This document shows, piece by piece, positions 13,739 through 47,730 of a DNA stretch of 64,000 nt. The notes below the pieces were generated by a model that was not told the DNA's origin, made no database searches, and worked only from the letters and a program-made list of their open reading frames with translations. The DNA lies in assembly GCA_041740355.1 (NCBI GenBank), contig JBGSMD010000063.1, forward strand, positions 53,002-117,001, read 5' to 3'. Origin of the DNA: Bdellovibrionota bacterium. Its GTDB lineage: Bacteria; Bdellovibrionota_C; UBA2361; CALJRW01. Each line of letters begins with the position of its first letter. Position 1 is the stretch's first letter. A program made the translations under genes and the position numbers.

Positions 13739-13769
13739 GATTAGAAAGAAATTTTATTTCTTTCTAATC
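13739..13769. repeat. Perfect 14-bp hairpin (GATTAGAAAGAAAT-TTT-ATTTCTTTCTAATC), extendable by TCATC/GATGA
   Basis: Read directly from the sequence. It lies in the 560-bp divergent intergenic region between the SYLF gene and tag. Confidence 0.6.
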
Positions 13770-14031
13770 ACTGATGAATTATGCGAGCTAGTTAAGAATG
13801 CACAACAGTCACTAAGGACATGATAATTAAAAATAATTTCCTGAGTTAACTTTTAAAAATTAGCTGAAGTTCTATTATTTCTTGACCTACTATAATTTCT
13901 ATCTTTAGTTTGCTTTATGACCTTCATCATAGGATAGGCTATTAATACTGGCTTAATCGGTCTTGCCTTTAATGAATATTGGGGGTTAATATCCTTTTTG
14001 GTTGTTTTAAACGTTATTGATCAGTAATTAA

Positions 14032-14610
14032 ATGAATAAACTAACTCGTTGTACTTGGGTCGGGACCGATAAGCCTCATTATGAAAAATACCATGACGAA
14101 GAATGGGGAGTTTCTGTGTATGACGATCGGAAATTATTTGAATTTTTGATACTAGAGAGTGCCCAAGCAGGACTTAACTGGGAAACAATTCTTAAGCGAA
14201 GGACTGGCTATAAAAAGGCTTTCTGTAATTTTGACCCTAAAAAAGTTTCTAAACTTAGCGACCATCAATTAGAGAAACTTCTCTTAAACCCTGAAATTAT
14301 ACGTAATCGACTGAAGGTTTTTTCAACACGAAAAAACGCCTTAGTTTTCCTAGAAATCCAAAAAGAATTTGGCTCATTTAGCAATTATCTCTGGGCGTTC
14401 GTAAATAATCGAAAAGTTATTAATAAATGGAAGAATCTAGCCGATGCTCCAACTGAGTCTAAGGAAAGCCAGGCTATATCAAAGGATCTAAAGAAGCGCG
14501 GCATGACTTTTGTTGGTTCAACAATTATTTATGCTTATATGCAAGCAGTAGGTTTAGTAAACGATCATGTTACTGAATGCCATTGCTACAAGCGTTGTTG
14601 TAAACAGTAA
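14032..14610 (+). CDS. tag: DNA-3-methyladenine glycosylase I
   Basis: RCTWVGTD...YHDEEWGV...LILESAQAGLNWETILKRR and the C-terminal H..C.C zinc-snap residues are typical of Tag. Confidence 0.9.
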   Translation: MNKLTRCTWVGTDKPHYEKYHDEEWGVSVYDDRKLFEFLILESAQAGLNWETILKRRTGYKKAFCNFDPKKVSKLSDHQLEKLLLNPEIIRNRLKVFSTRKNALVFLEIQKEFGSFSNYLWAFVNNRKVINKWKNLADAPTESKESQAISKDLKKRGMTFVGSTIIYAYMQAVGLVNDHVTECHCYKRCCKQ

Positions 14611-14613
14611 GCT

Positions 14614-15249
14614 ATGGAAAAAGTCATTTTACTTCATGGAATCTTACTGCATGATTACAACATGTCTTCTTTAGCAAAATATCTAAAAAATAACGGCTAT
14701 GAAGTTCTAAATATTTGCTACCCTTCACGTCGGTGTCCCATAAAAGATCTAACTCAGATTGTTAAAAGTAAAATTCTCGCTGATTTTCAGTCCGATCAAA
14801 AAATTAACTTAGTTGGATTTTCCATGGGAGGTCTAATTTGGCGTTCGATCTTAGCTGAAATGCAACCTAAAAATCTTGGTCGGTTAGTGATGATAGCTAC
14901 TCCTAACCAAGGTAGTGAAGTCGCTGATGCTCTACACTTAAATCCATTTATTAGATTCCTTTTTGGTCCAGCAATTAGCGATTTGCGAACGACCGCCGCC
15001 GATCAAATTCCTAGCATTAATAATCCACAATTAGAGTTTGGAATAATTGCTGGAAACATTCCTACCTCGCCACTTTTTAGCCGATATTTCACGGAAGAAA
15101 ACGATGGCAAAGTTTCAGTTGAGAGTTCGCATCACTTAGGAGAAAAAGACCATATTGTTTTGCCATTCGATCACACATTTGCACCATTTAACAAAAAAGT
15201 TCAGCAACAAACTCTACATTTCCTAAAAAACGGCAATTTTCAACATTAA
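14614..15249 (+). CDS. Alpha/beta-hydrolase fold esterase/lipase-like protein
   Basis: The nucleophile elbow GFSMGG is present, with the size and pattern of a small alpha/beta hydrolase. Confidence 0.65.
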   Translation: MEKVILLHGILLHDYNMSSLAKYLKNNGYEVLNICYPSRRCPIKDLTQIVKSKILADFQSDQKINLVGFSMGGLIWRSILAEMQPKNLGRLVMIATPNQGSEVADALHLNPFIRFLFGPAISDLRTTAADQIPSINNPQLEFGIIAGNIPTSPLFSRYFTEENDGKVSVESSHHLGEKDHIVLPFDHTFAPFNKKVQQQTLHFLKNGNFQH

Positions 15250-15307
15250 TTCTGACCATAGACTTGATATATTTGTAGATTAATTTAAAAATGCGACTTC
15301 AAATTAT

Positions 15308-15397
15308 GGAGAGGTGGCCGAGTGGTTGAAGGCGCAAGCCTGGAAAGTTTGTATACTAGAAATGGTATCGGGGGTTCGAATCCCCCTCTCTCCTCCA
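15308..15397 (+). tRNA. tRNA-Ser (anticodon GGA), CCA encoded
   Basis: Hand-folded: acceptor GGAGAGG/TCTCTCC (one G-U), 3-bp D stem, anticodon loop CTGGAAA, long variable arm (ATAC...GTAT), T arm GGGGG-TTCGAAT-CCCCC. Confidence 0.9.
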
Positions 15398-15640
15398 TTA
15401 ACTATTCACTACGTGAATAGTTAATGGAGCGCGCCGAAGCTCCGTAGGAGCGAAGGTGGGCTGATTGAATACAAAAATTTCATAGCCACGGCGTAGTCCG
15501 TCTTTGCGGAGCAAAGACGTAACGAAGACGGGCTGTTTGCGATCAAGTTATTTTACTCCAGCAGTGATTGAAACGAGCAAGTGATTTTTGTAGCCATAAC
15601 GCAGTTCTTCTTTGTGAAGCAAAGACGAAACCAAAACAAT
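15393..15640. repeat. Hairpin array beginning inside the 3' end of tRNA-Ser
   Basis: The first hairpin is a 17-bp stem, CTCCATTAACTATTCAC-tac-GTGAATAGTTAATGGAG. Next come GCTCC-gta-GGAGC flanked by GAA/GAA, then CGTCTTTGC-gga-GCAAAGACG with a competing AAGACGG arm. A degenerate second copy of that unit lies at ~15588-15630. Confidence 0.6.
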
Positions 15641-15672
15641 TGATACTTACACAAAATTATTTACAGGCTCCT

Positions 15673-17355
15673 TTATAGGACTGGTACATCCCCAGCACTA
15701 GCAGGAGTTTCATTATCACCAATATTGTTTGTATTACCATAACCGATACTACCAAACTCACCGCTACCCCAACACCTAACACTACCGGTATCCAGTAATA
15801 CACATGTATGAATACCTCCGGCGGCTAGTTGAACCACGGTGCCACCGACATTTACATTTCCGACACTTGCTGGAGTTTCATTGTCACCAATATTATTAGT
15901 ATTGCCATAGCCAAGCTGACCATTTAAGCCTCGGCCCCAACACCTAACATTTCCCGTATCTAGTAATGCACAGGTTTTCTTAAAACCAGTAGCTATCTGA
16001 ACTACGGTGCCTCCGACATTTACATTTCCGACATTGGCTGGAGTTTCATTGTCACCAATATTATTAGTATTTCCATAACCAAGCTCCCCATCCGAACCTT
16101 CGCCCCAGCATCTTACATTTCCCGTATCTAGTAATGCACAGGTGTGATTCCCTGAAGCGGCCAATTGAACTACATTGCCACCAATATTCACAGCCTCATA
16201 GATAAGAGGTCCAATAATGTCATAAGTGCCCCCATGGCCAAGTTGGCCATAATAACCATCCCCCCAACACTTAACATTTCCTGAATTAACCAAGGCACAT
16301 GTATGATTACTTCCTGCTACTATTTGAGTTACAGTTTCATTTTCAAAATTGTAATCTTGAATAATAACAGACTCAAAGTTAGCAGGAGCTTCATCGTCTC
16401 CAACATTAGTAGTATTTCCGTTGCCCAGTTGGCCATTTCGTCCATAACCCCAACATTTAACTTGTCCAGTATTTAAAAGTGCACAGGTATGATTTGAGCC
16501 AGCAGAGATTTGAGTAACAGTCCCGCCAACATTAACATCTCCAGCATTGGCAGGTGTTTCAAAGTATCCAACAGAAGCAGTACTACCATATCCAAGTACA
16601 CCATAGTTACCACTCCCCCAACACCTAACTTTACCTGTGTCAAGTAGGGCACAGGTATGACCCCCTCCAGTAGCGATATCAACGACATTCCCGCCAACAA
16701 TTACATCCCCAACGCTTGCTGGTGTTTCATCATCTCCAATATTATAATGTACAGGAACAGTTGCATATCCAAGTTTACCAATAAACCCCTCACCCCAACA
16801 TCTAACTGCTCCAGTATCTAGTAGAACACAAGTATGACTAAATCCTGCCGATATTTTTTGAACATCTAAAGGTATATTACATAAGTTAGAACAAGCATCG
16901 TCATTAATATTATTTCCATCATCACACTGTTCTCCAGACTGCTTGACTCCATCTCCACAAATAGGCGTTGTGCATATATTAGTACAGGAGTCCTCATTGA
17001 TCGTATTCCCATCATCACACTGTTCAGCAATATCAACATCAACTACACCATTCCCACAGGTATGATTACAAGCAACCAGTCCTGAGACATGAAGCTTCTG
17101 CATTTTTTTTGATTGATTATTATATTTATTAATTCCGGTTGAGGCGAACAACTTCTTAAAATTAGAACTTAGCTTCTTATAGGTAATAAATTTCTTTTTT
17201 TGAATCTTCCCTGGCTTCCAAGAACCATTAACGTTTTTACAAACATAATTTATACCATCCTTTTCAACGTTTACCGTCTGGGCAAAAGCCGCCCCGGAGA
17301 ATAAAAATAGGCAGACTAGCAAAGATGAGAAGATAAATTGAAATGAGTTTTTCAT
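15673..17355 (-). CDS. Secreted RCC1-repeat (beta-propeller) protein with N-terminal Myxococcus-type cysteine-rich repeats
   Basis: A signal peptide is followed by CGNG..D..EQCDDGN...C..C repeats (x2-3). Then come about nine repeats of HTCALLDTG.V+CWG.G..GQLGYGNT..IGDNETPA (RCC1 signature). A start at 17355 (MKNSF...) is preferred over 17364. Confidence 0.8.
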   Translation of the reverse strand: MKNSFQFIFSSLLVCLFLFSGAAFAQTVNVEKDGINYVCKNVNGSWKPGKIQKKKFITYKKLSSNFKKLFASTGINKYNNQSKKMQKLHVSGLVACNHTCGNGVVDVDIAEQCDDGNTINEDSCTNICTTPICGDGVKQSGEQCDDGNNINDDACSNLCNIPLDVQKISAGFSHTCVLLDTGAVRCWGEGFIGKLGYATVPVHYNIGDDETPASVGDVIVGGNVVDIATGGGHTCALLDTGKVRCWGSGNYGVLGYGSTASVGYFETPANAGDVNVGGTVTQISAGSNHTCALLNTGQVKCWGYGRNGQLGNGNTTNVGDDEAPANFESVIIQDYNFENETVTQIVAGSNHTCALVNSGNVKCWGDGYYGQLGHGGTYDIIGPLIYEAVNIGGNVVQLAASGNHTCALLDTGNVRCWGEGSDGELGYGNTNNIGDNETPANVGNVNVGGTVVQIATGFKKTCALLDTGNVRCWGRGLNGQLGYGNTNNIGDNETPASVGNVNVGGTVVQLAAGGIHTCVLLDTGSVRCWGSGEFGSIGYGNTNNIGDNETPASAGDVPVL

Positions 17356-17408
17356 ATGGATCATTAAAAAAAGGATTAACTAACTTGTTAGGACTCGGAT
17401 CTTCTTGT

Positions 17409-17730: not shown

Positions 17731-19401
17731 TTACAATACTGGCACATCGCCTGCACTAGCCGGCGTTTCGTCATCACCTATATCGTTGATATTACCATAT
17801 CCAAGATTACCCTCATCCCCATATCCCCAACATCTTACAGCACCAGTATCTAGAAGTGCACAAGTATGACTAACAATATAAGAAATTCTAGCATTTGAAG
17901 TAGTTATTTGAGTAACAGTGCCACCAACATTAATATCACCAACGCTAGCTGGAACCTCATTGTCTCCAATCGTTGTAAAATTTCCATAACCAAGTTGACC
18001 AGAACCTCCAAAACCCCAACACTTCACGGCACCAGTATCAAGTAGTGCGCAAGTGTGAGTTTTACCCGCAGATATTTGGGTTACCGTACCGCCAACATCA
18101 ACGTTATCAATACTTGCAGGTGTTTCATTGTCACCAACACTATATATATTACCGTAACCAAGTTGGCCCTCTTCGGCATATCCCCAACATTTTACTGCTC
18201 CAGTAGCTAAAAGCGCACAAGTATGATTATTGCCAGCAGATATTTGAGTTACTGTACCACCAACATTTATATCACCAACATTAGCTGGAGCCTCATTATC
18301 TCCAATAGTTTCAACATTTCCATAACCAAGTTGACCAGAACCTCCAAACCCCCAACACCTAACGGCACCATTATCAAGTAGTGCGCAAGTGTGACCACTG
18401 CCCACAGATATTTGAGTTACAGTACCGCCAACATCAACGTTACCAATACTAGCAGGTGTTTCATTGTCACCAATACTATTTGTATTACCGTAACCAAGTC
18501 GGCCATTTCCTCCATCGCCCCAACATTTTACAGCTCCAGTATCTAAAAGGGCGCAAGTATGCTTTCTACCAGCCGATATTTGAGTTACCGTACCGCCAAC
18601 ATCAACGTTACCAATACTAGCAGGTGTTTCATTGTCACCAATACTATTTGTATTACCGTAACCAAGTCGGCCATTTCCTCCATCGCCCCAACATCTTACT
18701 GCTCCAGTATCTAAGAGTGCGCATGTATGTTCTTCTCCCGCTGATACTTGAGTTATAGTACCACCTACATTCACATCTCCAACACTAGTTGGAGTTTCGT
18801 TATCTCCAATATTGATTACATTAGCATATCCAAGTTGACCAGAACCTCCATAGCCCCAACATTTAACATTACCAGTCTCCACAAGGGCACAGGTATGCGC
18901 ACCACCAGCGACTATTTCCAAGACTTTGTATAGACAAGTATTCGGACAAGTATCATCATCGTTACTATTCCCATCATCGCATTGTTCATCAGACTGGACA
19001 ATTCCATCACCACATTCTGGAAAATTACAAGAATTAGTACATAAGTCTGTGCTAACTAAATTCCCATCATCACACTGCTCACCCATGGATACGTCTAATA
19101 TTGTGTTTCCACAGGTATGACTACACGCAACTAACCCAGCTATATGCAGGTTCTTCATTTTTAGTGATTGCTTATTATATTTTTTTAAGGCAGTAGCTAC
19201 ATATAATTTCTTTAGATCTGATTGTAGTTTCTTGAAAGTTATAAATTTCTTTTTCTGGATTTTACCAGGTTTCCATGAGCCTTTAATTTGACTGCAAACA
19301 AACGTTTGTCCATCTTTAGTAACGGTAACTGTCTGTGCAAAAACTGAAGATGATAAACAAAAGAATACACAAGCGGATAATAATGAAAGCCTAATTTTCA
19401 T
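17731..19401 (-). CDS. Secreted RCC1-repeat protein with cysteine-rich repeats (paralog of 15673-17355)
   Basis: It has the same architecture and the same repeat consensus. The N-terminal 100 aa are co-linear with the paralog (…GSWKPGKIQKKKFIT.KKL…). Confidence 0.8.
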   Translation of the reverse strand: MKIRLSLLSACVFFCLSSSVFAQTVTVTKDGQTFVCSQIKGSWKPGKIQKKKFITFKKLQSDLKKLYVATALKKYNKQSLKMKNLHIAGLVACSHTCGNTILDVSMGEQCDDGNLVSTDLCTNSCNFPECGDGIVQSDEQCDDGNSNDDDTCPNTCLYKVLEIVAGGAHTCALVETGNVKCWGYGGSGQLGYANVINIGDNETPTSVGDVNVGGTITQVSAGEEHTCALLDTGAVRCWGDGGNGRLGYGNTNSIGDNETPASIGNVDVGGTVTQISAGRKHTCALLDTGAVKCWGDGGNGRLGYGNTNSIGDNETPASIGNVDVGGTVTQISVGSGHTCALLDNGAVRCWGFGGSGQLGYGNVETIGDNEAPANVGDINVGGTVTQISAGNNHTCALLATGAVKCWGYAEEGQLGYGNIYSVGDNETPASIDNVDVGGTVTQISAGKTHTCALLDTGAVKCWGFGGSGQLGYGNFTTIGDNEVPASVGDINVGGTVTQITTSNARISYIVSHTCALLDTGAVRCWGYGDEGNLGYGNINDIGDDETPASAGDVPVL

Positions 19402-38296: not shown

Positions 38297-38788
38297 ATGA
38301 CATTTTCCAGAACGGATGAAAAATACCAGACTTTAGAGACTCACCTAAGCCAGGATCAGTATTTAATGGTACATCTAAACCCTACTTACCCTGGTGTTTT
38401 AATACCAGAGAATTTTCTTGCTTCACCAACTCTTACACTAAAGTTAAGTTATAATTTTCAAGGAGTTACCGTTATCACCCCAGAATTAATTACGGCAGAA
38501 CTTATGTTTAATGGTAAACATTTTTCCTGCCGAATTCCACTGGCAGCGATTTGGGGTTGCACAACTATTGCTGAGAAAAACTTCATTTGGCCAGAAAGTC
38601 TTTCAGCAAATTCCTATGAGAGTTTAGCCACAGAAATGGAAAGTATTAAAAAACCTAAGTTAGCTGTTAATAAACAAGAAGATATTTCTACACCCTCTTC
38701 TAATCTTAAGAAAATTGAATCTGATCCCAAGCAGGAGGAACCAGTAGCAGAAAATAAAAAACGTCCAAACCTCACTCGAATTAAATAA
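38297..38788 (+). CDS. sspB: ClpXP adaptor SspB-like (stringent starvation protein B)
   Basis: The N-terminal domain pattern (…MVHLNPTYPGVLIPE…TLKLS…F.G….C.IPL.AIWG) is followed by an acidic/low-complexity linker and a basic C-terminal tail, KKRPNLTRIK, resembling the ClpX-binding tail of SspB. Confidence 0.55.
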   Translation: MTFSRTDEKYQTLETHLSQDQYLMVHLNPTYPGVLIPENFLASPTLTLKLSYNFQGVTVITPELITAELMFNGKHFSCRIPLAAIWGCTTIAEKNFIWPESLSANSYESLATEMESIKKPKLAVNKQEDISTPSSNLKKIESDPKQEEPVAENKKRPNLTRIK

Positions 38789-38813
38789 CCAATAGAAGAT
38801 AGCTGTTGAAGAA

Positions 38814-41150
38814 ATGATTAATTTAAAAGTTTTGATTGGCTCAACTAAGATTAATTATAATCTTATATCTTTAATTCTAGCTCTTACTTGTGTCCATCTG
38901 AGCATTTCACAAATAATTTCTAGTGAACCAATAAGTGGCTGGGACACTCCAGGGCATCTCTACTTAACATATAAGATGCAAGAATTCTTAGGATTAGGAA
39001 CCTGGTTTGGCTATGATTCAAGCTGGTTCTCAGGCACAGCTCTCTTTGTGCTGTATCCACCACTAACATATATATTAATTAACATATTACATCTTATAAC
39101 TTTCTCTTCTGATCTAACTTATAGTTTTAACCTATTTATTTACCTTCAAGCTCAATTATTAGTAATAATTTTTTACTGGATAACAAAATATATTTTAGGT
39201 GTCGAATATCGGAAATATGTGATGTTGGTGCTCACCTTAATGTTACATACAAACATTATCTATTCGACCCACTTTATAGGATTAGCAGGATTATTTTACG
39301 CAGGCTTTCTATCAAATTGTACAGGGCTAATTCTATTCTTGCTGCTATTTGCACAAATCAGAAAACTGGAATTAAACATTATTAGCTCCTCTTATACTTC
39401 AATATTAATATTGAGCTTGATTTTACTTAACCATATAATCTCAGCAATATTTACTTTAATATTTATATCAATTTACTTAGCCCTTCAGGGAAATTCAAGG
39501 GTAGCGAAAAAATGGTTTGCTGTTATCGCAGTCGCTTCGCTGGTTGCTTCCCCTTATTACTGGATATTTATTGCCAATCTAGAATTTTCATCCTCAGAAG
39601 CTATCGGGCTTCACGGATCTTTTCCCGATCCCTTATTAGTCCTCTTTCCAAATCTTAATATTGAACATTTTGTGAATATGTTTAATGCCGAATTTAGCGA
39701 TACCTTCAGTTTTTTTAACTATAAAATCGAGTTGCCATTAATCATCAGTCAATTTCCATATTATGCGCTGATTGCTTTTTATTTTGGAATTAAAGGAAGT
39801 CTTCTAATTGTTAAAAGTCAAAAAAAACTACTGGGGTTTCTTTTTACAATTACTATCCTCTTCATATTCTTACCTCGCGCTTACTTAACAAACCTAACTA
39901 GCCTGACAATCCACTACTATCGCTTTACTGGCCTGCTGAGTTTCATGTTTATTTTTATAATTGCCTCTGGGATTAAACATTCTGACTACACACATAGCAA
40001 TTTGAAAAAAATACTCGGAGGTATATTTCTTGCTCTGATTTTACTACTAACAACGTCGTATCAGATGCTTTTCATTAGTGATTCTAGACATCAAGAATTT
40101 AAGCTACACCTGAGCGATTATCAAGGATATCAAAACCTAGATAAGGTTGCTAAATACCTTAAAGAGAACAATCTAACTGCAGGTGTTGCAATTGAGCAAA
40201 GCTATAATTTCCTCCTACAAGTCGGTTCCCTTCATGCCGTTTCATATCTTTTCCCGCATAAGTATAAAATCCCAATCAAGACTGGACTACTAGCTGAGTC
40301 AGCTTATTACTCGTCATTAATTAATCCCACTTTAGGTCTTCAAACAAATCACATGGTTTGGGGAAGTAAAGAATTATACCTTTTTAACTATTTTAATAAC
40401 CCAAAAAAAAATCCGAATTTATTTATTGAGAAGCTAAGGCTTTTAGGAGTAAAAGTATTAATCACAACAGATCGGGACAGCTTCAAAAAAATTAAAACCC
40501 TAACTCTTCAAAATCGTTTTCTAGTACTAAATAAAAAGATTGCTAATTATGCTATATTTGTTTTGCCAGAGTTGTCCCTAAAGAAAACCAACTCAATCAA
40601 GCCCCGATATCTATTTTTTGATTCAAAAGAATTAGCATTCAAAATGTTTTTTAGAGACTGGTTTGCTTATGATTCAACGATTAATTTTAACCTAGTATAC
40701 GATTACTTCAATTTGACTCAAAAAGATCCTAGCTTATTAAGTCAATTTTCAGGATTAGTCTTTTCCGCTGAGAATACAAATTCTTGTCTTAAGAATTACG
40801 AAAAGCTGAAGAGCTTGCAAGGTGATCTGAATGAAAAGTTAATCCCCTTAATTGATCAACAAAACCAGCAGCAAGAAAACCCAGCAATCCAAAAGCATAA
40901 GAGAGACTTTTATGATTTAGATATTATTTTCTTGGGTAAGAAGTGTTTTAAAGATCCGAACTGGAAAGTTAAGTGGATTAAAACAAATAATCCAGAAGAG
41001 AGAATGGCAAAACTAACAAAACTAGTTCAAAAAAATAAGCTAAAAATTCTCGTTAATAATAGACTGATTAATACGGAAGATACGTTTAGCCCACTAAATG
41101 GTAATAATTCATTTATCCAAACCCCGTTTTTTACTCTAAAGGTTAGGTAG
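38814..41150 (+). CDS. Large polytopic membrane protein (778 aa), GT-C/YfhO-like architecture
   Basis: The N-terminal ~430 aa hold about 13 or more hydrophobic helices, followed by a soluble ~340-aa C-terminal domain. The gene looks very AT-rich by eye. The family assignment is a guess from architecture only. Confidence 0.55.
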   Translation: MINLKVLIGSTKINYNLISLILALTCVHLSISQIISSEPISGWDTPGHLYLTYKMQEFLGLGTWFGYDSSWFSGTALFVLYPPLTYILINILHLITFSSDLTYSFNLFIYLQAQLLVIIFYWITKYILGVEYRKYVMLVLTLMLHTNIIYSTHFIGLAGLFYAGFLSNCTGLILFLLLFAQIRKLELNIISSSYTSILILSLILLNHIISAIFTLIFISIYLALQGNSRVAKKWFAVIAVASLVASPYYWIFIANLEFSSSEAIGLHGSFPDPLLVLFPNLNIEHFVNMFNAEFSDTFSFFNYKIELPLIISQFPYYALIAFYFGIKGSLLIVKSQKKLLGFLFTITILFIFLPRAYLTNLTSLTIHYYRFTGLLSFMFIFIIASGIKHSDYTHSNLKKILGGIFLALILLLTTSYQMLFISDSRHQEFKLHLSDYQGYQNLDKVAKYLKENNLTAGVAIEQSYNFLLQVGSLHAVSYLFPHKYKIPIKTGLLAESAYYSSLINPTLGLQTNHMVWGSKELYLFNYFNNPKKNPNLFIEKLRLLGVKVLITTDRDSFKKIKTLTLQNRFLVLNKKIANYAIFVLPELSLKKTNSIKPRYLFFDSKELAFKMFFRDWFAYDSTINFNLVYDYFNLTQKDPSLLSQFSGLVFSAENTNSCLKNYEKLKSLQGDLNEKLIPLIDQQNQQQENPAIQKHKRDFYDLDIIFLGKKCFKDPNWKVKWIKTNNPEERMAKLTKLVQKNKLKILVNNRLINTEDTFSPLNGNNSFIQTPFFTLKVR

Positions 41151-41153
41151 TAG

Positions 41154-41312
41154 CTAGTTATAATTCATTTTATCTGCTGTAAATTTTAATTTTTGTGAGC
41201 TAGCTCTTCCCATAGCAGTTACGGCAACGATGGTTACGATAGCGATTAACGCAACAAGTAGTCCATACTCAACTAATGATGCCCCTTTTTTATTTTTATT
41301 TATTTTTTTCAT
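41154..41312 (-). CDS. flp: Flp/Fap family type IVb pilin (52 aa; not in the ORF track)
   Basis: Hand translation gives MKKINKNKKG|ASLVEYGLLVALIAIVTIVAVTAMGRASSQKLKFTADKMNYN*. The G-x-x-x-x-EY motif plus a hydrophobic helix is the Flp signature. Confidence 0.7.
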   Translation of the reverse strand: MKKINKNKKGASLVEYGLLVALIAIVTIVAVTAMGRASSQKLKFTADKMNYN

Positions 41313-41363
41313 ATTCTTCTTTATTGGGTTTCCCCGTTAAATACGCCTGATTGATAAATCTAG

Positions 41364-41960
41364 TTAAATATCTAATTTTTTGCAATTAAGATGGAAATTA
41401 TTAGGTAAATCTACAGTTAGTGTAAACTGATATGCGCCTGCTACTGCTATATTTAATTTAATATTCTGACTGTTTTCGCCATTGAAAAGTGTAAAATCTT
41501 GATTCAAAGTAAGATTAGATCCCTCTTGTTCGAATCCAAATACAAAAGGGCTAGTCCAATCTTGATCTGCGATTTTAAATTCATACTCTCCGGGAATTAA
41601 GGGTAATACTACTCGATAGTTATTCCCGCCAACTGGCAAAAGCTGATTATAAGCTCCCGCTTTCCAATTCTCAATTCGATTAACACGAAGAAACACATTA
41701 CGATCAATACTTTTTATTGGATTATTAGCACTATTTTCTTGCGTAATTGGATTAAAATAAACTACAACGGCCAATAATAAGATTACAAGAAAAATTATCC
41801 CTCCAAAAATCTTGGCATAAGATTCCATCTTTTTCCTAAACCTATATTGTTCTGCGAATTTTTTTAAATTAGCAGTGCTTCTTGATCGAACCGAATCTTG
41901 AATAACATCGCCCAGACCTAATTGATCCTGTCTTTTAAACGTTCTTTTATTAAATATCAT
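41364..41960 (-). CDS. Single-pass membrane protein with C-terminal beta-sandwich-like (CBM-like) domain
   Basis: It has one TM helix (IFGGIIFLVILLLAVVVYF). The C-terminal GEYEFKIADQDWTSPFVFG resembles carbohydrate-binding-module patterns. This is a weak call. Confidence 0.4.
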   Translation of the reverse strand: MIFNKRTFKRQDQLGLGDVIQDSVRSRSTANLKKFAEQYRFRKKMESYAKIFGGIIFLVILLLAVVVYFNPITQENSANNPIKSIDRNVFLRVNRIENWKAGAYNQLLPVGGNNYRVVLPLIPGEYEFKIADQDWTSPFVFGFEQEGSNLTLNQDFTLFNGENSQNIKLNIAVAGAYQFTLTVDLPNNFHLNCKKLDI

Positions 41961-42165
41961 AACTAGCTAAGTTTATCAGATAACGAATTAGAATTACAGA
42001 TAAGATCTACTGTAAAGTATCAAATATTATCGGTTTATTCGTTACAAGCTAATCACAACAACCACAGGGCCCCTAATGAAAGGGATCAGAATGACCTGAT
42101 TATTCAATCCATTTGAATTATCTTTACAATTAGAAAATGGATTAATTCGATACAAACGTTATGAA

Positions 42166-42194
42166 TTGTTAGCACTCTGGTTTAGGTGTATATT
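42166..42194 (+). promoter_or_regulatory. Candidate sigma-70-type promoter for the RT operon (TTGTTA-N17-TATATT)
   Basis: The hexamers were read directly from the sequence with a 17-nt spacer, about 80 nt upstream of the RT ATG. In AT-rich DNA such matches are common by chance. Confidence 0.25.
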
Positions 42195-42272
42195 TATATT
42201 TGGTTGGTTTGTGCAACCTATCGATTAGAACATATTAAAAAAGACAAACGGACCCAATCAGCAATCTTAGTA

Positions 42273-43604
42273 ATGAACCTACTGCAAAAACTCTCCTCCC
42301 GTGAAAACTTTTTAGCAATCCTTGATATTTTAAAAAGTAAAAAAAAATCAAAATCTTGGATTCTACAATCTGCCCCGATTGAAAAATCAATATCGCTTGC
42401 TTGGTGTATTTATAACCAAGACTTACTTATCAAGTATTATTTAAAAAACTTAAGAAATCATTCCTATCGCCCACAAGTAAGAATTAAAATGACTATTTTT
42501 ATAGATAAACAAAGGATTATCTATAATATTAACTGGGTTGATAAAATTATGGACTATGCCCTGACTAAACTACTTTTTGATGTCAGTGCGGAATTTTTCT
42601 CCGATCAATTATTTTCCTATCGCCAAGGATTTTCTAATAAAAAAGCAGTAAAAAGCCTCTGTAAATATATCAAGAATAATCAAGGCTCAGAGATCTACAT
42701 TGCCAAACGAGATATTAAATCATACTTCGATAATATTAATAGCGGGATTTTAACCTCACAAATTAAGGAGAAATGTGGCGAGCAAGATTCCTTTTTTTGG
42801 AAACTTTTAAGTAGTTTCTTACAACCAGAATATTATGATCCGGAGCTAGATCTTCAGGAGCAACTACTTCTAGGAATACCAACTGGATCTTGCATCTCTA
42901 ACTTTGCTGCGAATTTTTATTTGCACGACCTTGATCATTTAGCTGTAAACAATTTAGACTTTTATGTTCGCTATGGAGACGATATAATTTTTGCTGATCG
43001 GGATAAGGATAAGCTAAATCAGCTTCTTAATACTTATCAAGAAAAAATTTTGGAACGCGATCTTAAATTCCACCCAGACAAAGATCTATTCCTGAAAATC
43101 GGACCAACTTTAGCAAGCTCCAAAGATTCGCCCTATCAAAGCAAAAAAGTATTTGATTACCTAGGTTACCAAATTAGCGACGAAGGACTTATCTTCCTAA
43201 AGTCTTATAAATTTAAAAAACTAAAAAAGGATATTAAGAGTAGACTATTCAACTCCTATCGCACATATTACCGTGCTGGACTAAGTAAGGATCTGCAAAT
43301 GTCTAATCTGATTAAAGACCTAAATGGTACGATGCGAGATTTAAATTACTATAATCATTTCGCCGATCTTGTCCTATTCACGACTGATAAACCACGACTT
43401 AAGGAATTTGATATTTGGATTGCTCAAACAATTATTGCCATGACTCATAACTGTTCTCGCGCTAATGCGTTTGGGAAAATTTCCTACAGACAAATACGCG
43501 AGGCAGGTCTATTCTCGATTCTAAATTACAAGAATATTTATCCTAGAAGAAATGAAGTTCTCCGATCTACAAAAAATCTCCAAAGCAGATCAGCAACGAC
43601 GTAA
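42273..43604 (+). CDS. Reverse transcriptase (RNA-directed DNA polymerase), orphan/unclassified
   Basis: RT motifs in order: YRPQ...I....R.IY (1), D+I..YAL..LL (2), RQGFS...AV, KRDIKSYFDNI (3), LGIPTGSCISNFAANFYLHDLD (4), YVRYGDDIIF (5; YGDD at 42972-42983), FHPDKDLF (6), FDYLGYQI (7). A ~150-aa C-terminal extension follows. The ATG at 42273 is preferred over the GTG at 42186. Confidence 0.85.
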   Translation: MNLLQKLSSRENFLAILDILKSKKKSKSWILQSAPIEKSISLAWCIYNQDLLIKYYLKNLRNHSYRPQVRIKMTIFIDKQRIIYNINWVDKIMDYALTKLLFDVSAEFFSDQLFSYRQGFSNKKAVKSLCKYIKNNQGSEIYIAKRDIKSYFDNINSGILTSQIKEKCGEQDSFFWKLLSSFLQPEYYDPELDLQEQLLLGIPTGSCISNFAANFYLHDLDHLAVNNLDFYVRYGDDIIFADRDKDKLNQLLNTYQEKILERDLKFHPDKDLFLKIGPTLASSKDSPYQSKKVFDYLGYQISDEGLIFLKSYKFKKLKKDIKSRLFNSYRTYYRAGLSKDLQMSNLIKDLNGTMRDLNYYNHFADLVLFTTDKPRLKEFDIWIAQTIIAMTHNCSRANAFGKISYRQIREAGLFSILNYKNIYPRRNEVLRSTKNLQSRSATT

Positions 43605-45786
43605 TCTTGTCCGTAAAGGACTAGAGCAGTATGATCTCAGATCCTACTTACGCTACTTAAGGTATCGAATTAAATGGCCAATACTTTTTAAGTTACTTTC
43701 TCGACTAATTGTTATTGTTGAAGTGATTCTAATTCAACAACTATTTACTTATAATATTTTTGCAGACTTAACTCTCTATATTTTCATTATTTTTATCAGT
43801 CGAAGCGCCCTAAAAGGTATTACTCAATACTATCGTGTGCAACTAATGCCCCTAGCGACGGCAAAAAACATTTCTGGCCTAAATATCGCCCTAAGTAAGG
43901 CTCTGATCATAAACATCTTTTCTGCCTTTTTATTAGCCTTGGTCATTAGCATTCTTTGTCTACTCTTAGATTTATCGGATCAGTTAAACACTTACTTTAT
44001 AATTTCCTGGTGCTTATTAATCCCGCTAGAGCAAATTACCACGCAGCTTTGGAATACCGTCTATCTTAATACCCGACTAAGGCGAAGTGCCTTGATTACT
44101 TTCATTTGCCGCATGCTTCCAATCATTTCACTATTAGCTTTTAGCAGCTTGATTGGCCCCCTAAGTTACATTCTGGGTACATTTATGGCGAGATTATTAG
44201 AAAGTTTTTACTTATCGCGTGTCGCAATTTTAGCATTAAAGTTCAAATTTACATTAAAGAAGAAATCGAGCAGTTTGTTACAAGTTATCGGACAGTATTT
44301 TAAAAATCAAAAGGCGCGCCAATACCTTTACTTTAATGCCATCCTACCCTGTTATTTTTTGGGTCTTGGATTAATCATCTTTGAACGGGGAGTCGGTACC
44401 TGGATTACAAATATTATTTATTTTTTTATTTTAAATTTTGCAGTTTTTTTTACTACACAAATTTCACGCTCAATTCAATTTGACATCTACTCCTGCTTTA
44501 AAAAAGGGCAGGTAAAAAAAGCAACGTTCTTAGGCAAAAGAATTGTAAAATATACTTTGAACTTTGCTGTAATTCTAGCAGCTAGCTTTATCTATTTACT
44601 CTTAAATTCCAAAAGGTTTTACCTTTTCATACCAATTAGCTTAGAATATTTTCTATTAATCTTACCCTTGGCAGTAATTGCTCAAACGTTTTTTTTTTCG
44701 ATCTATGCCCAAATCCAATCCCTAGCAATCGATCGTTATTTCACCAAGCTAATCTTCATTAGCTTCCTCCTAATAGGCTTACCAATTCAGTTCCTTCTAT
44801 TTCATTATTACCTCGCAAATCTACAAGCGATCTACTGGACTGAAATCCTTCTCTTTGTGTTTGTAGGTACACTATTATATTTAAATTTGAACTTTAATCT
44901 CAGTCCCTTTTTAATAAAGTATATCAAAAGAGAGCGGAAGGCTCTGCCCCTGTGCCAACCAACTGCACTCCAATTAGAGCTCCGAACTAAATATATCAAA
45001 ACTGGCTCAGCTTATCTTTACATATTATCTTATTATGAGCGGGATGCTTTCTGGGAACGCATTAAGTATTCACTTCCCCAAACAAAAGATTTCTTAATTA
45101 CCCGGTACTCTGCTGGGCTCTTCCTGCTTTCATCTCATCAACCACTGACGGATCTTGATTTTCGCAACCTAAGCTTTGTTGCCAAAAAGCAAATAGATTT
45201 AAGCCAAGAGCTACTGCAGACTTTACTGGATATTTATACTTTTTACTATTCTCTAGAATTTAGAAATAGCTCATTCCAAAAAATACGTAATAAGTTCTAT
45301 CTTAATAGATCCATCAAAGAAGAATTGTATCAGTTAGCGGAATTAAAGAGGCCAGTAGATCAAATAATATCAGAGTTGCTTGGAGCTCCTAGGATCGTCT
45401 TCAAAAATGGTAAAATTTCTTGTTTGGGCAAAGTCAGTAATAAACTTTATAATTTTGCTTTGAACCAATATTTTTATCCTGACAATAACTTGGCTCCCGC
45501 AATTCAAGGATCCCAATTAACAATCAGAATTAATAATACGGAAACAATTAGTTTCGACTTAAGGCACTTGAATAGTTACCTAATTGGACAAGTTAATAAA
45601 AAGATTTTTTTCCTCAATCAATATTATTATTTTAAGAATATTATTGATCCCCATTTGCCATATGCAGCTAGCATTCAAGATTATTTAATAGCACGGAGAC
45701 TGATTCATAAACATACCCGTCGCTGTAAAACGAGAAAGGCTGACCATTTAGCAGATCTCAATTTTTATAATCATAAATTAGTATGA
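43552..45786 (+). CDS. Polytopic (~12 TM) membrane protein with ~290-aa soluble C-terminal domain; RT-operon gene 2
   Basis: About 12 hydrophobic helices were counted by eye between aa ~40 and ~450 (MOP/MATE-flippase-like spacing). No motif was recognised in the C-terminal domain. It overlaps the RT gene by 53 nt and the PLD gene by 4 nt. Confidence 0.65.
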   Translation: MKFSDLQKISKADQQRRNLVRKGLEQYDLRSYLRYLRYRIKWPILFKLLSRLIVIVEVILIQQLFTYNIFADLTLYIFIIFISRSALKGITQYYRVQLMPLATAKNISGLNIALSKALIINIFSAFLLALVISILCLLLDLSDQLNTYFIISWCLLIPLEQITTQLWNTVYLNTRLRRSALITFICRMLPIISLLAFSSLIGPLSYILGTFMARLLESFYLSRVAILALKFKFTLKKKSSSLLQVIGQYFKNQKARQYLYFNAILPCYFLGLGLIIFERGVGTWITNIIYFFILNFAVFFTTQISRSIQFDIYSCFKKGQVKKATFLGKRIVKYTLNFAVILAASFIYLLLNSKRFYLFIPISLEYFLLILPLAVIAQTFFFSIYAQIQSLAIDRYFTKLIFISFLLIGLPIQFLLFHYYLANLQAIYWTEILLFVFVGTLLYLNLNFNLSPFLIKYIKRERKALPLCQPTALQLELRTKYIKTGSAYLYILSYYERDAFWERIKYSLPQTKDFLITRYSAGLFLLSSHQPLTDLDFRNLSFVAKKQIDLSQELLQTLLDIYTFYYSLEFRNSSFQKIRNKFYLNRSIKEELYQLAELKRPVDQIISELLGAPRIVFKNGKISCLGKVSNKLYNFALNQYFYPDNNLAPAIQGSQLTIRINNTETISFDLRHLNSYLIGQVNKKIFFLNQYYYFKNIIDPHLPYAASIQDYLIARRLIHKHTRRCKTRKADHLADLNFYNHKLV

Positions 45787-47513
45787 AATCCAAAAGTTTA
45801 ATCTACTTTATTTTCATTTTACTAAGCTTAATTATTGGACTATCGCTCCACGCTGAGAGAATCGAAATACCTCTTTACGTTCTACGAAAAGCAATTACTT
45901 GTTCTAGTGTTCAAGAGAAAACATTGGAAGTTGTTTTCCAAAACAAGTCTTATTTGATCGCATTTGACCATATTTACAGTACTCCCGTTATTAATGCAGG
46001 TTTAGTCTGTCAACGTTTGATCCGCTACTTAAAAGCAGCGCCTTCGCCCAATTTAATCATCCCTATCTCCAAAAAATATACCAAGTTCGGCCATGATATT
46101 TATGTCGATGAATCAGGATTTTTAGAAAAAGCTTGCCTAGAACAAGGGCTTTGTAAGCGAAACATCTTGGATACTTTTAAGCCCAAAAAAATACTCCGTG
46201 AATGTCATGGGAAAATTACACTAAACGGCTTATTGGCAAAATCTCGTCCCAAAATTCCTGGCTATCAAACAAAAATCATTAAAGATGTTACAATTAAAAT
46301 TCACCCATTTCATCCATTTATCAATATTCTAAATGAATACCTTCAAGATCCAATTTTAAAGGAAATTCATGCCTCTACTATGTCAATTGGTAATCAAGCC
46401 CTAGACGATATTTCTGCCAGCACGCAAAGCTACAATAAAAAGGCTGTAATTAATTATGATGCCGGAATTTCATTGTTCAATTCTCAACAAGGCCAAATTG
46501 CTAAGGCTATTACTAAGTCACCTAAAGTTCATTTTTTACCAATGACCAGTGGTAATAATTTTAGCCAATTTTATCACATCAAATTTATTGCTAGCCCACA
46601 AACTAACAAGTCAATGTTGGCCTCAATGAATTTAGCCTCAGTAGATCGAACAGCATATCTCGACCTAAATTTTTTCTTTGAGGATCCTACTATTCGCGAT
46701 GAGTTTTTATCCATCTCAAATAATAATAATCGAAGATTTTGTGATTATTCTGAAGATTATGACTGCTTAGCAAATTTTTATGATGAAAGATCAAAATCCC
46801 ATATTCCACTGGTAATAAATAGAAGTTGTCCGACAAGCAATACCGAAACTACTATCAAAAGATCTGGTTACTTTGTAAACTCCGAAGATGATGATCTCAA
46901 ACAATTTGTGATAAACTTTATTAATCAAGCAAAACAAGAAATCATTGTAACTTCCTACAAGTTAACAGAAAGAGCCATTGCCAAGGCCTTATTAAACAAG
47001 CAGCAAGAAGGGCTTAAAGTTCACGCCATGTTAGCCTTTAAATCTCCCGCATTGGGCGAATTGAAAAGCCATTTCTACTCGGGGGAAGTTGTTAAGGAAG
47101 AGTATCCTTTTCCTCACATGAAAATTATTATTATCGATCGCCGACTAATGCTATTTGGAACTGCGAACTTCACGATTAATGCTTTAAATAATACAACTGA
47201 ATTAATTGGAGTTACTGATAATCAGCAAGCAATTAAAACAGCGTTAGATCATGTCGCAGTTTTTACACAGTCCAAAGATCTGGCCTTAAGTAAAAACATT
47301 TCCAATACTCCTAAGCAGAAAAATTATGTAGCAGTGACGAGCTCTACGCAGATCAAACCAGTGAATTTACCTTTTACTAAACCGCTTGAGCAGAAATGGT
47401 TATCAAACTACCGAGAGGTAACAAAGGAAGGCGAAAAATTATTAGATAAGTGTGATTTAAGGCACCTTATTTTTATAACTAAGGCAACTTATTTGGAATG
47501 TCTTAAAAAATAA
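45783..47513 (+). CDS. PLD-superfamily (HKD) enzyme with N-terminal signal peptide/anchor; RT-operon gene 3
   Basis: The canonical HKD motif HMKIIIIDRRLMLFGTANFT (HxKxxxxD-x6-GTxN) lies at 47115-47168. A degenerate first motif, HIKFIASP...ASMN, lies at 46575-46641. The N terminus MKSKSLIYFIFILLSLIIGLSLHA is signal-like. Confidence 0.8.
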   Translation: MKSKSLIYFIFILLSLIIGLSLHAERIEIPLYVLRKAITCSSVQEKTLEVVFQNKSYLIAFDHIYSTPVINAGLVCQRLIRYLKAAPSPNLIIPISKKYTKFGHDIYVDESGFLEKACLEQGLCKRNILDTFKPKKILRECHGKITLNGLLAKSRPKIPGYQTKIIKDVTIKIHPFHPFINILNEYLQDPILKEIHASTMSIGNQALDDISASTQSYNKKAVINYDAGISLFNSQQGQIAKAITKSPKVHFLPMTSGNNFSQFYHIKFIASPQTNKSMLASMNLASVDRTAYLDLNFFFEDPTIRDEFLSISNNNNRRFCDYSEDYDCLANFYDERSKSHIPLVINRSCPTSNTETTIKRSGYFVNSEDDDLKQFVINFINQAKQEIIVTSYKLTERAIAKALLNKQQEGLKVHAMLAFKSPALGELKSHFYSGEVVKEEYPFPHMKIIIIDRRLMLFGTANFTINALNNTTELIGVTDNQQAIKTALDHVAVFTQSKDLALSKNISNTPKQKNYVAVTSSTQIKPVNLPFTKPLEQKWLSNYREVTKEGEKLLDKCDLRHLIFITKATYLECLKK

Positions 47514-47518
47514 AAGAA

Positions 47519-47650
47519 AAAAGAGTTGGGCGGAATTTAACGCTTACCTGCTCTATAATATCTGCCGTCAGAACCTGCACCTTTCTCCGAAGGCGTATTT
47601 ACAGATCCCCCTTGCGTTTGGAGAAGCCCGAAGGCGACAACCCAACTCTT
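47519..47650. ncRNA. Candidate structured element: GC-rich ~110-nt core closed by a 10-bp inverted repeat (AAGAGTTGGG...CCCAACTCTT)
   Basis: The inverted repeat was read directly. On the minus strand the core contains GCC-UUCG-GGC and a second UUCG, plus UUCUCC/GGAGAA pairing. The minus strand is followed by a U-rich tract. The strand, and whether it is transcribed at all, are unknown. Confidence 0.3.
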
Positions 47651-47730
47651 AATTTAATATTACCATAGCAATTTAACGATAAACAATGATTTATTTTTAA
47701 AGTTCTAAGAAAGGAATGTAATTAAAAGTT

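Follow-up and report, generated by a model that had tools for sequence, protein, structure and literature searches.

A probably exported, two-lobed PLD-family protein is linked to a polytopic membrane protein, a reverse transcriptase and a structured RNA in a Bdellovibrionota genome

The PLD-family protein (PLD) encoded in the window, i.e. the whole stretch of 64,000 nucleotides analysed, is on the sequence comparisons made here one component of a four-part module, the others being a structured non-coding RNA (ncRNA), a reverse transcriptase (RT) of ~440 aa and a membrane protein of ~750 aa (Table 1). No description of this four-part system was found in the libraries and literature searched. 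The explanation that we prefer, tentatively and at a little less than an even chance, is that the module is a system under RT/ncRNA control that extends across the inner membrane, includes a periplasmic PLD hydrolase, and probably serves in conflict or anti-phage defence. As part of that explanation, PLD would be a Sec-exported, disulfide-stabilised, monomeric two-lobed phosphodiesterase with an active site made up of H-K-N from lobe 1 and H-K-D-N from lobe 2.

Table 1. Features of the RT/ncRNA/membrane protein/PLD module in the window
Feature	Position	Strand	Details
Reverse transcriptase, about 443 aa	42273..43604	+	Pfam RVT_1, 1.4e-19
Polytopic inner-membrane protein, 744 aa	43552..45786	+	About 10 TM helices (residues ~43-442); ~300-aa C-terminal domain predicted cytoplasmic
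PLD ORF	45783..47513	+	Encodes 576 aa
PLD signal peptide, residues 1-24	45783..45854	+	n-region MKSKS, h-region LIYFIFILLSLIIGL, c-region SLHA, then ER
PLD N-terminal Cys-rich, beta-rich domain, residues 25-165	45855..46277	+	C40, C76, C118, C124, C141
PLD lobe 1, residues ~166-345	46278..46817	+	Variant motif H265-x-K267-x15-N283, nt 46575..46631
PLD lobe 2, residues ~355-505	46845..47297	+	Canonical HKD H445-x-K447-x4-D452-x6-G459-T460-x-N462, nt 47115..47168
PLD C-terminal extension, residues 506-576, and stop codon	47298..47513	+	Invariant C557, C573
Structured ncRNA, about 136 nt	47520..47655	-	Convergent with PLD gene; covariation, fold energy, CM

The linkage of the PLD gene to an RT, remarked on in the initial annotation, is real: an RT of 431-447 aa, a 10-TM protein of ~750 aa and PLD were found together in 9/9 informative loci. 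The module loci lie in unrelated neighbourhoods and include both collinear and divergent layouts. In the window, genes for topoisomerase IV, NuoI, a helicase and MTHFR lie near the module, with no recognisable defence island around it, and no relative was found on plasmids or viral contigs. When the window was compared to one related locus (L001), identity was 71 % for the RT, 58 % for the membrane protein and 62 % for PLD, versus 95 % for the flanking ParC, 94 % for NuoI and 82 % for the helicase. The module evolves much faster than its housekeeping flanks, a behaviour typical of conflict or surface genes.

The longest ORF for the RT starts at a GTG (42186), and homologues of 431-447 aa favour the ATG at 42273. 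The YxDD motif (Y231, G235, D236 and D237) and D147 are invariant in seven module RTs. The top PADLOC matches of the window RT were to the generic RT model and to RT_UG26 (both about 1e-32, 111.6 bits each); RT_UG26 is the best specific PADLOC model for the module RTs (68-112 bits), and the generic model scored higher in five other module RTs. The reported partner of UG26 is a Vsr-like endonuclease (PMC9226505), and no gene for one was found near the module. Assignment to the retrons was rejected, as the retron RT model gave 34 bits against a cut-off of 235 and the closing-stem ncRNA is antisense and downstream in the window, whereas the msr-msd ncRNA of a retron, with its terminal inverted repeats, lies upstream. 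A group II intron RT/maturase was likewise rejected (TIGR04416, 107 bits against a cut-off of 300; no intron RNA was detected in the window using Rfam).

The membrane protein had no match in Pfam, PADLOC, NCBIfam or PDB sequences. It is conserved in all module loci, and residues Y35, R39, E57, R175 and D311 are invariant in the eight sequences compared. Hydropathy and the positive-inside pattern, with K+R counts of 12/4/10/7/2/43 in the in-loops and 0/3/1/2/0 in the out-loops, predict an N-in, C-in topology. In one case, P0025, it is fused to PLD: 10 TM helices are followed by a soluble domain of 269 aa, an 11th TM helix that is the retained PLD leader segment, and then PLD. With this topology, the soluble domain and PLD would lie on opposite sides of the membrane and, judging from the gene fusion, the membrane protein is physically coupled to PLD.

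The ncRNA includes a closing stem, a UUCG hairpin, a long hairpin and a 3' single-stranded stretch, and its U-tract overlaps the PLD stop codon. It is found directly after PLD in the window, L001 and L003, though the right-hand neighbouring gene differs in all three. The minus strand folds at -36.5 kcal/mol versus -26.4 kcal/mol for the plus strand, and the G-U pairs are valid on the minus strand only. Compensatory changes were seen in 19 of the 30 pairs, with 98 % of cells paired compared to 34-54 % when the partners were slid. The ncRNA CM also matched L010 just upstream of the RT (25 bits), similar closed-stem elements were found upstream of the RT in L014, L015 and L017, and in these four loci the RT-adjacent ncRNA is both upstream and sense. 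No Rfam family was found for it, the only Rfam matches in the window being three tRNAs. A covarying ncRNA of ~140-180 nt thus belongs to the module; neither it nor the coupling of the membrane protein to PLD featured in the initial annotation.

The start ATG of PLD overlaps the stop codon of the upstream gene (ATGA), and the second Met in the ORF is only reached at residue 200. An N-terminus reading MKSKSLIYFIFILLSLIIGLSLHA with ER following had been interpreted as predicting export or membrane anchoring; it is present, and both catalytic motifs lie where they had been placed. The leader is the sole TM-like segment in PLD (residues 6-24, 19-aa hydropathy 2.43) and, judged by inspection, it has the positive n-region (MKSKS), the h-region of 7-15 residues (LIYFIFILLSLIIGL) and the c-region with small residues at -1 and -3 (SLHA, followed by E) that define a Sec (SPase I) leader. 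An n-h-c leader is common to the full-length relatives, with E, D or Q mostly at +1; the leader ends in Ala24 in 21/21 full-length members, all 21 have the hydrophobic core, and in P0013 and P0018 it is lipobox-like. All 10 Cys of PLD are invariant (25-31 relatives compared), and no invariant Cys was found in the RT (seven sequences) or the membrane protein (eight sequences). The window organism is a diderm, as it encodes a TolC-like OEP and a MacB. The family-wide leader with its lipobox-like variants, the 10 invariant Cys and the P0025 fusion strongly support the view that PLD is exported from the cytoplasm or anchored in the membrane, in agreement with the original prediction.

The second HKD motif is canonical, as had been claimed (H445-M-K447-IIII-D452-RRLMLF-G459-T460-A-N462, nt 47115..47168), and H445, K447, D452, G459, T460 and N462 are nearly invariant among the relatives. 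The first motif, from nt 46575, reads H265-I-K267-FIAS-P272-QTNKSML-A280-S281-M282-N283 and has, as also described, Pro in place of Asp and A-S-M-N in place of G-S-x-N; in this register the spacer is 7 residues, not 6. Because H-x-K occurs three times in PLD (residues 142, 265 and 445), it is not significant alone. However, H265, K267 and N283 do not vary across 31/31 cluster representatives, no two of which exceed 50 % identity and which share 22-62 % identity with the query, and motif 1 is therefore more than chance. The P272 position is variable, with P in eight, S in seven and D in four of the 31. Hence, to call the HKD pair half-degenerate was misleading, as only the Asp and Gly positions vary and the catalytic His, Lys and Asn of lobe 1 do not. 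On this conservation, lobe 1 is an H-K-N variant site and is not decayed.

Pfam gave only one match on PLD, to PLDc_2 (PF13091) at residues 377-486 (2.4e-16, 60.2 bits against a cut-off of 27). Lobe 1 was missed by Pfam and is visible through structure only, and no sequence similarity between lobes 1 and 2 was detectable using hhalign. In the AF2 model (pLDDT 87, pTM 0.86), the strand-turn-strand pattern that follows HxK is alike in the two lobes, and the structural alignment extends over 268-305 residues with two-lobed PLDs versus 130-138 with the single-domain Nuc, NucT and Zucchini. The model matches the bilobed, (pseudo)dimeric alpha/beta PLD fold, in which two HxK motifs come together, and the two-motif architecture proposed initially is thus borne out by the fold.

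Of the solved structures, NucT (6ehi, 2.3e-17) was the best PDB sequence match to PLD, and Nuc (1byr) matched at 6e-14. The NucT and DrmC models match 21/21 PLD members scanned and cardiolipin synthase models match only 2-4, while the fold is as near to the phospholipid-acting PLDs as it is to the nucleases and the domain pI values are mixed. Three specific assignments were rejected. The NucT/Nuc equivalogs (NCBIfam NF010490-NF010493), which are single-HKD proteins of ~160-180 aa, gave 30.7-42.5 bits against cut-offs of 211-351 (42 against 297 for NucT), and PLD has 576 aa and two lobes; DISARM DrmC (NF038319) gave 40.4 bits against a cut-off of 133, and the neighbours are an RT and the membrane protein in 9/9 loci; and for a cardiolipin/phosphatidylserine synthase, TIGR04265 gave 20.3 bits against a cut-off of 290 and a lipid-metabolism context was never seen. 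Nuc of pKM101 is reported to be periplasmic (Pohlman 1993). NucT too has a signal peptide, of 23 aa, and is periplasmic or outer-membrane associated (PMC5714352), and the earlier premise that Nuc-like PLD nucleases are cytoplasmic is therefore wrong.

The mechanism we propose builds on the export signals, fold, catalytic residues, gene linkage, fusion and ncRNA described here. The cytoplasmic RT-ncRNA, or its cDNA product, would do the sensing or regulating, much as in retrons and DRTs, and the membrane protein would contact this part via its cytoplasmic domain and hold or gate PLD on the periplasmic face. Once activated, PLD would cleave a phosphodiester substrate in the envelope. Nucleic acid, e.g. 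DNA in transit through the periplasm, is favoured as the substrate because the sequence kin of PLD are the exported nucleases Nuc and NucT. The cross-membrane signalling, the substrate and the role in defence are inferred, the last by analogy, as the membrane protein matches no PADLOC model and the PADLOC matches for the RT (generic RT and UG26) and PLD (DrmC) are weak. To our knowledge, no described RT system places an enzyme effector, or any effector, outside the cytoplasm, those characterised in bacteria (retrons, DRTs and Abi RTs) sensing and acting in the cytoplasm or at most perforating the inner membrane, and cross-membrane signalling of the kind proposed would be without precedent.

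A credible, if rather unlikely, alternative is that the periplasmic PLD is a phospholipase that is released or activated by the RT/ncRNA/membrane-protein part, hydrolyses envelope phospholipids, in the outer leaflet of the inner membrane or the inner leaflet of the outer membrane, and kills the infected cell (abortive infection), in the manner of PLD toxins of the T6SS Tle5/PldA type, which act from the periplasm. The periplasm gives direct access to membranes and little to cellular nucleic acid, the P0025 fusion places PLD at the membrane, and RT systems whose effectors damage membranes are known, e.g. UG17/DRT10, which has SLATT, and UG5, which has a TM protein (PMC9226505). However, by sequence all 21 members fall in the Nuc/NucT/DrmC nuclease branch and the cardiolipin synthase models touch only 2-4 of them; structural similarity inside the PLD superfamily does not separate substrates, and an immunity protein is not evident in the module. 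We consider it improbable that the module is instead a non-defence envelope or DNA-traffic module tied to Flp/Tad pili, in which PLD processes DNA on its way in or out at the envelope, a role suggested for NucT in competence, or, in one version, processes RT-made cDNA that has crossed the membrane via the 10-TM protein. NucT has been implicated in transformation and purine salvage (PMC5714352), and genes for Flp pilin or TadE/TadG lie 0.1-5 kb from the module in three independent contexts (window/L001, L003 and L010). GT-C glycosyltransferase genes also recur nearby, and the module is chromosomal, among housekeeping genes and syntenic in two related genomes. Though suggestive, the Flp/Tad and GT-C adjacency is missing at other loci (L015 and L017 are without Tad genes) and could be phylogenetic inertia, as the sampled loci may be related lineages. 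Further, the membrane protein did not match ComEC or any known family of transporters, and conflict better fits a module that evolves much faster than its housekeeping neighbours.

Still less probable, and speculative, is that RT-made cDNA or ncRNA-templated RNA-DNA is exported via the 10-TM protein and then cut or transferred to an envelope acceptor by PLD, or that DNA arriving via the envelope or Tad pili is sensed by the periplasmic PLD with its N-terminal domain, which then signal to the RT inside; if either were true, no earlier RT system would have had a working end outside the cytoplasm. Least likely is that lobe 1 is a decayed, non-catalytic pseudo-HKD, making PLD a half-site enzyme or a binding protein, or that the N-terminus is not a functional export signal. 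While the Asp and Gly of the consensus are missing from lobe 1, Pfam did not recognise it and hhalign found it dissimilar to lobe 2, three residues are invariant across distant representatives and the Asp position drifts freely. Export is favoured by the conserved leader and its lipobox variants, by the invariant Cys and by the topology of the fusion.

If the preferred reading, of an RT/ncRNA-controlled periplasmic hydrolase, is correct, an RT and ncRNA are hard-wired here to a hydrolase outside the cytoplasm, and a role in defence would imply a new effector logic, in which either a sensor in the cytoplasm drives an executioner in the periplasm or a periplasmic nuclease guards the entry of DNA. 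It raises the testable question of whether an RT-ncRNA complex can control an enzyme across a membrane. The module supplies a new RT/ncRNA pair, and its PLD, compact and two-lobed with H-K-N/H-K-D as the active site, should be useful for enzymology.

Among known PLD-family proteins, NucT (H. pylori, 6EHI) and Nuc (pKM101, 1BYR) resemble PLD in family and in being exported, but they are single-HKD nucleases of 155-180 aa that form the active site by homodimerisation and have no RT link, whereas PLD, at 576 aa, is predicted to be monomeric; its two lobes are unlike, its first motif is H-K-N, and it has an additional Cys-rich N-terminal domain and a C-terminal extension. DrmC, the best PADLOC match (5.7e-13), shares the Nuc-like PLD domain and belongs to a defence system of several genes, but it is a cytoplasmic single-domain protein. 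DISARM is defined by genes for a helicase, DUF1998 and a methyltransferase, and neither the ORFs nor the called genes next to the module include these defining genes. The two-lobed PLDs (vaccinia F13, bacterial PLD 7E0M, the PLD3/PLD4 5' exonucleases, PssA and P. aeruginosa PldA, a Tle5 toxin of the T6SS with its site of action in the periplasm) share only 10-15 % identity with PLD; most have two canonical HKD motifs, and none of them has an RT, ncRNA or this membrane protein as a genomic partner. In Tdp1, both lobes carry H-K-N, but the enzyme is found in the nucleus or cytoplasm, and structurally it matches much less well than the other PLDs.

The effector pair of a 10-TM protein and an exported PLD is absent from PADLOC and from the UG/Abi survey (PMC9226505). 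The module differs from UG26 in that its RT scores no better with UG26 than with the generic RT model and the Vsr-like partner is absent. Nevertheless, the logic of an RT, an ncRNA and an effector is common to the module, the retrons and the UG/Abi DRTs, which include UG17/DRT10 (RT, SLATT and ncRNA), UG5/DRT1 (RT-nitrilase and TM protein) and UG26. Membrane effectors are documented in UG systems (PMC9226505), and the module resembles retrons and DRTs in its stand-alone RT with an intact YxDD, the ncRNA with a long closing stem beside the RT and its membrane-associated effector genes.

The PLD gene encodes a 576 aa protein, and its start codon shares bases with the stop codon of the upstream gene (ATGA, with ATG overlapping TGA). 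As the next Met is residue 200, no plausible downstream start would remove the N-terminus, and this option was dismissed. The N-terminus, MKSKSLIYFIFILLSLIIGLSLHA/ER, provides the sole TM-like segment of the protein, and Pfam found one PLDc_2 domain only (residues 377–486). The motif in lobe 2 (residues ~355–505), H445-x-K447-x4-D452-x6-G459-T460-x-N462, is canonical, as the initial annotation had stated. The motif in lobe 1 (residues ~166–345) reads H-I-K-FIAS-P-QTNKSML-A-S-M-N from H265; its earlier description (H265, K and N retained, Pro for Asp, and A-S-M-N) is correct apart from the spacer, as the A-S-M-N register requires seven residues rather than six.

The PLD family was built by an exhaustive HMMER profile search over 1.84 billion representatives, which yielded 29 clusters at E<1e-30, mostly end-to-end matches with a few fragments, and a farther set of ~500–600 aa proteins in which the match spans both lobes. 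A word-indexed protein search, also when run with a profile of 21 sequences, recovered no more than three family members, the two relatives sharing 62 and 48 % identity. In scans of metagenomes, neither the PLD protein motif nor the core pattern of the ncRNA gave a match. A scan of viral contigs found no relative, and tblastn against plasmids produced one weak PLD match but no relative.

All 31 representatives have H265, K267 and N283, and 26 have S281 and 26 have M282, but the position of Pro272 (consensus Asp) drifts freely (P in eight, S in seven, D in four, and others). The lobe 2 residues H445, K447, D452, G459, T460 and N462 are nearly invariant. Though the HKD pair had been called half-degenerate, the catalytic His, Lys and Asn of lobe 1 do not vary, and this conservation indicates that lobe 1 is not degenerate as regards catalysis. 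An AlphaFold model from a 21-sequence alignment (pLDDT 87, pTM 0.86), which supersedes an unusable AF2 model from three sequences (pLDDT 48), has the same strand-turn-strand-(S/T)xN pattern after both HxK motifs. Similarity between lobe 1 and lobe 2 was undetected by hhalign and, hence, the lobe duplication is supported by structure only. Values listed with the model in an unlabelled column were 21.1 for Vaccinia F13, 19.7 for the bacterial PLD 7e0m, 18.0 for PLD4, 16.7 for PssA and 15.9 for the P. aeruginosa PLD.

When compared to PDB sequences, lobe 2 matched NucT (2.3e-17), Nuc (6e-14) and Zucchini (~1e-6), and in PADLOC the PLD matched DrmC (5.7e-13). The NCBIfam models for NucT and DrmC match all 21 scanned members and the cardiolipin synthase model two to four of them. 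These matches group lobe 2, at the sequence level, with the nuclease branch. However, because all scores lie far under the curated cut-offs, the PLD is not a member of the NucT, DrmC or cardiolipin synthase families; identity as DrmC was rejected on this ground, as was a cardiolipin/PS synthase, given also how few members match cardiolipin synthase. Domain pI values, meant to tell nuclease from lipase, did not separate the two.

The leader of every full-length member consists of a short, charged n-region, then a hydrophobic core, then a c-region whose last residue is Ala, followed by Glu, Asp or Gln. In the 21-sequence alignment Ala24 is conserved, and lipobox-like leaders (ISG/C and SAA/C) occur in two members, P0013 and P0018. 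All ten PLD cysteines are invariant (25–31 sequences, 22–62 % identity to the query), whereas the control proteins, the module RT (seven sequences) and membrane protein (eight sequences), have no invariant Cys, a contrast that is the pattern of disulfide-bonded extracytoplasmic proteins. In a natural fusion (P0025), ten TM helices are followed by a 269 aa soluble domain, an 11th TM helix at the signal-peptide position and then the PLD. The 744 aa membrane protein of the window has ten TM helices, N-in and C-in, and satisfies the positive-inside rule; taken with the fusion, this topology puts the PLD on the periplasmic side. The window encodes a TolC-like outer-membrane factor (OEP) and MacB, so its organism is diderm; in combination with these, two paralogous ~560 aa proteins that carry RCC1 repeats and a Cys-rich DUF4215 repeat also indicate a diderm. 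An extracytoplasmic location for the PLD catalytic domains is well supported by this evidence, the leader being either cleaved or an uncleaved anchor. Thus, the export or anchoring predicted in the initial annotation was supported by the conserved leader, cysteines, lipobox variants and fusion, and the case is stronger at the family level than the sequence alone could show. pKM101 Nuc is likewise periplasmic. Though it was claimed that Nuc-like PLD nucleases are cytoplasmic, this is wrong: among the nearest relatives, Nuc-like nucleases are as a rule exported, and NucT has a signal peptide of 23 residues and is located in the periplasm or associated with the outer membrane (PMC5714352).

The previously noted linkage to an RT holds in all loci whose flanks are long enough, the PLD adjoining an RT of ~431–447 aa and a membrane protein of ~715–771 aa. 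Both lie beside the PLD in the window, L001/L002 (rearranged, though syntenic with the window), L003–L005 (unrelated neighbourhood), L008 and L015, and in L010 the RT is present and the membrane protein and PLD are fused. A distant group has RT and membrane protein in divergent orientation (P0043 locus and L014) or collinear (L017). The RT retains its catalytic residues (seven sequences). Its scores on the generic RT model and RT_UG26 are about equal, and it stays under the group II and retron cut-offs; the RT is therefore unclassified, and membership of the retrons or group II introns was rejected. A survey of UG/Abi RTs gives a PLD partner for no group (PMC9226505). The longest RT ORF begins at a GTG, and the 431–447 aa homologues indicate that the real start is an ATG (MNLLQKLSS...). 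Searches of Pfam, PADLOC, NCBIfam and PDB sequences found no match to the membrane protein, even when a profile was used and the threshold relaxed to E<=10. No conserved fourth protein was found, the 163 aa and 198 aa ORFs of the window being without a homologue beside the L003 module.

A GC-rich element directly 3′ of the PLD stop codon is kept in the window, L001 and L003, although its right-hand neighbour is a different gene each time (NuoI, GT87 and HNH, respectively). In the window, the minus strand folds at −36.5 versus −26.4 kcal/mol and several G-U pairs are valid on the minus strand only. The L003 ncRNA has a longer hairpin where the window carries a GCC-UUCG-GGC hairpin. When the three sequences were combined in a covariance model, it matched L010 (25 bits, E ~1e-4 to 1e-6) just upstream of the RT and on its strand. 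Compensatory changes occur in 19 of 30 pairs, and 98 % of cells are paired versus 34–54 % with slid partners, in a four-sequence alignment that, being fitted to the model, favours structure. As this conserved, covarying ncRNA lies beside the module, the module consists of ncRNA, RT, membrane protein and PLD, and in the clade of the window the ncRNA is relocated to the 3′ end, in antisense. Putative ncRNAs of 140–180 nt with closing stems of 11–15 bp, found by visual inspection (MFE z-scores −3 to −5, mononucleotide shuffles), lie upstream of the RT in L014, L015 and L017; a second covariance model (R2) did not recover them. No Rfam family matches the ncRNA, and a consensus promoter/terminator scan found no site for it, extended −10-like boxes being seen by eye only. 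In L012, two tandem copies of a ~135 bp GC-rich repeat directly downstream of the P0027 PLD gene, matched by neither covariance model, may be a different or duplicated ncRNA.

Positions of the module and of features near it in the window and in loci of relatives
Feature	Locus	Position	Strand
PLD	window	45783..47513	+
Lobe 1 motif, start	window	46575	+
Lobe 2 motif	window	47115..47168	+
RT, from ATG	window	42273..43604	+
RT ORF, GTG to ATG	window	42186..42272	+
Membrane protein	window	43552..45786	+
ncRNA, antisense, downstream of PLD	window	47520..47655	-
ncRNA, antisense, downstream of PLD	L001	11093..11233	-
ncRNA, antisense, downstream of PLD	L003	11770..11955	-
ncRNA, upstream of RT	L010	6394..6541	+
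Putative ncRNA, closed stem	L014	~6200..6345	-
Putative ncRNA, closed stem	L015	~1654..1818	+
Putative ncRNA, closed stem	L017	~2526..2692	+
GC-rich repeats	L012	~2740..3020	
Flp pilin or TadG/TadE-like genes	window	41154..41312	-
Flp pilin or TadG/TadE-like genes	L001	16009..16167	-
Flp pilin or TadG/TadE-like genes	L003	6207..6422	+
Flp pilin or TadG/TadE-like genes	L010	12064..15096	-
GT-C-type membrane protein	window	38814..41150	+
GT-C-type membrane proteins	L001	11382..13184, 13732..16008	
GT-C-type membrane protein	L015	14478..15950	
GT-C-type membrane protein	P0043 locus		
Topoisomerase IV-NuoI interval	window	38297..47655	
Topoisomerase IV-NuoI interval	L001	5331..16835	
P0024 PLD	L015	5324..8374	
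OEP and MacB	window	669..3420	
RCC1/DUF4215 paralogues	window	15673..17364, 17731..19401	-

Identity between the window and L001 is 95, 94 and 82 % for the flanking ParC, NuoI and helicase, and 71, 58 and 62 % for the RT, membrane protein and PLD. The topoisomerase IV-NuoI interval is rearranged between these two close genomes, a block of GT-C, Flp and the 198 aa ORF lying upstream of the RT in the window but, in L001, downstream of the PLD, and all genes in the interval are 57–73 % identical versus 82–95 % for the flanking housekeeping genes. L006 and L008 share sample SRR28170465; L006 matches the window from PLD to helicase (identical PLD protein, equal ncRNA model score), and L008 has a second module with a PLD only 35 % identical (P0004), preceded by a 737 aa membrane protein. 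As this run also holds the PLD gene of the window, divergent copies co-exist in one community. P0024 in L015 is 1016 aa long with a ~350 aa C-terminal extension after the PLD, and is followed a few kb downstream by genes for PspA and for MmeI-like type IIG restriction-modification.

The module includes an intact RT, a structured ncRNA and a membrane protein that is polytopic and has a large domain predicted to be cytoplasmic; the fusion couples the exported bilobed PLD physically to the membrane protein. By analogy with retrons and DRTs, the RT-ncRNA part would act as a cytoplasmic sensor or regulator that the membrane protein connects to the PLD, which would cut a phosphodiester substrate in the envelope. 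A phospholipase that could kill the cell from the periplasm, like T6SS PLD toxins, fits the fold and location equally well; we favour a nucleic-acid substrate because of the kinship with Nuc and NucT.

A defence role may be proposed for the module only by analogy and from its fast evolution, and no defence island surrounds the locus in the window. We also keep open a link to Tad pili, as a possible phage receptor or DNA-uptake route. In three independent contexts (window/L001, L003 and L010), Flp pilin or TadE/TadG genes lie 0.1–5 kb from the module, the window and L003 Flp sharing 61 % identity over 31 N-terminal residues, though this adjacency could be due to chance or shared ancestry. Large GT-C-type glycosyltransferase-like membrane proteins also recur nearby (GT87, PMT_2 or TMEM260_N matches in relatives); the 778 aa ORF of the window is without a Pfam match and is 73 % identical to a 758 aa L001 protein.

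The searched libraries and literature contain no description of the module. It is of the same kind as other systems combining an RT, an ncRNA and an effector, and is distinguished from them by an effector that, as predicted here, lies outside the cytoplasm.
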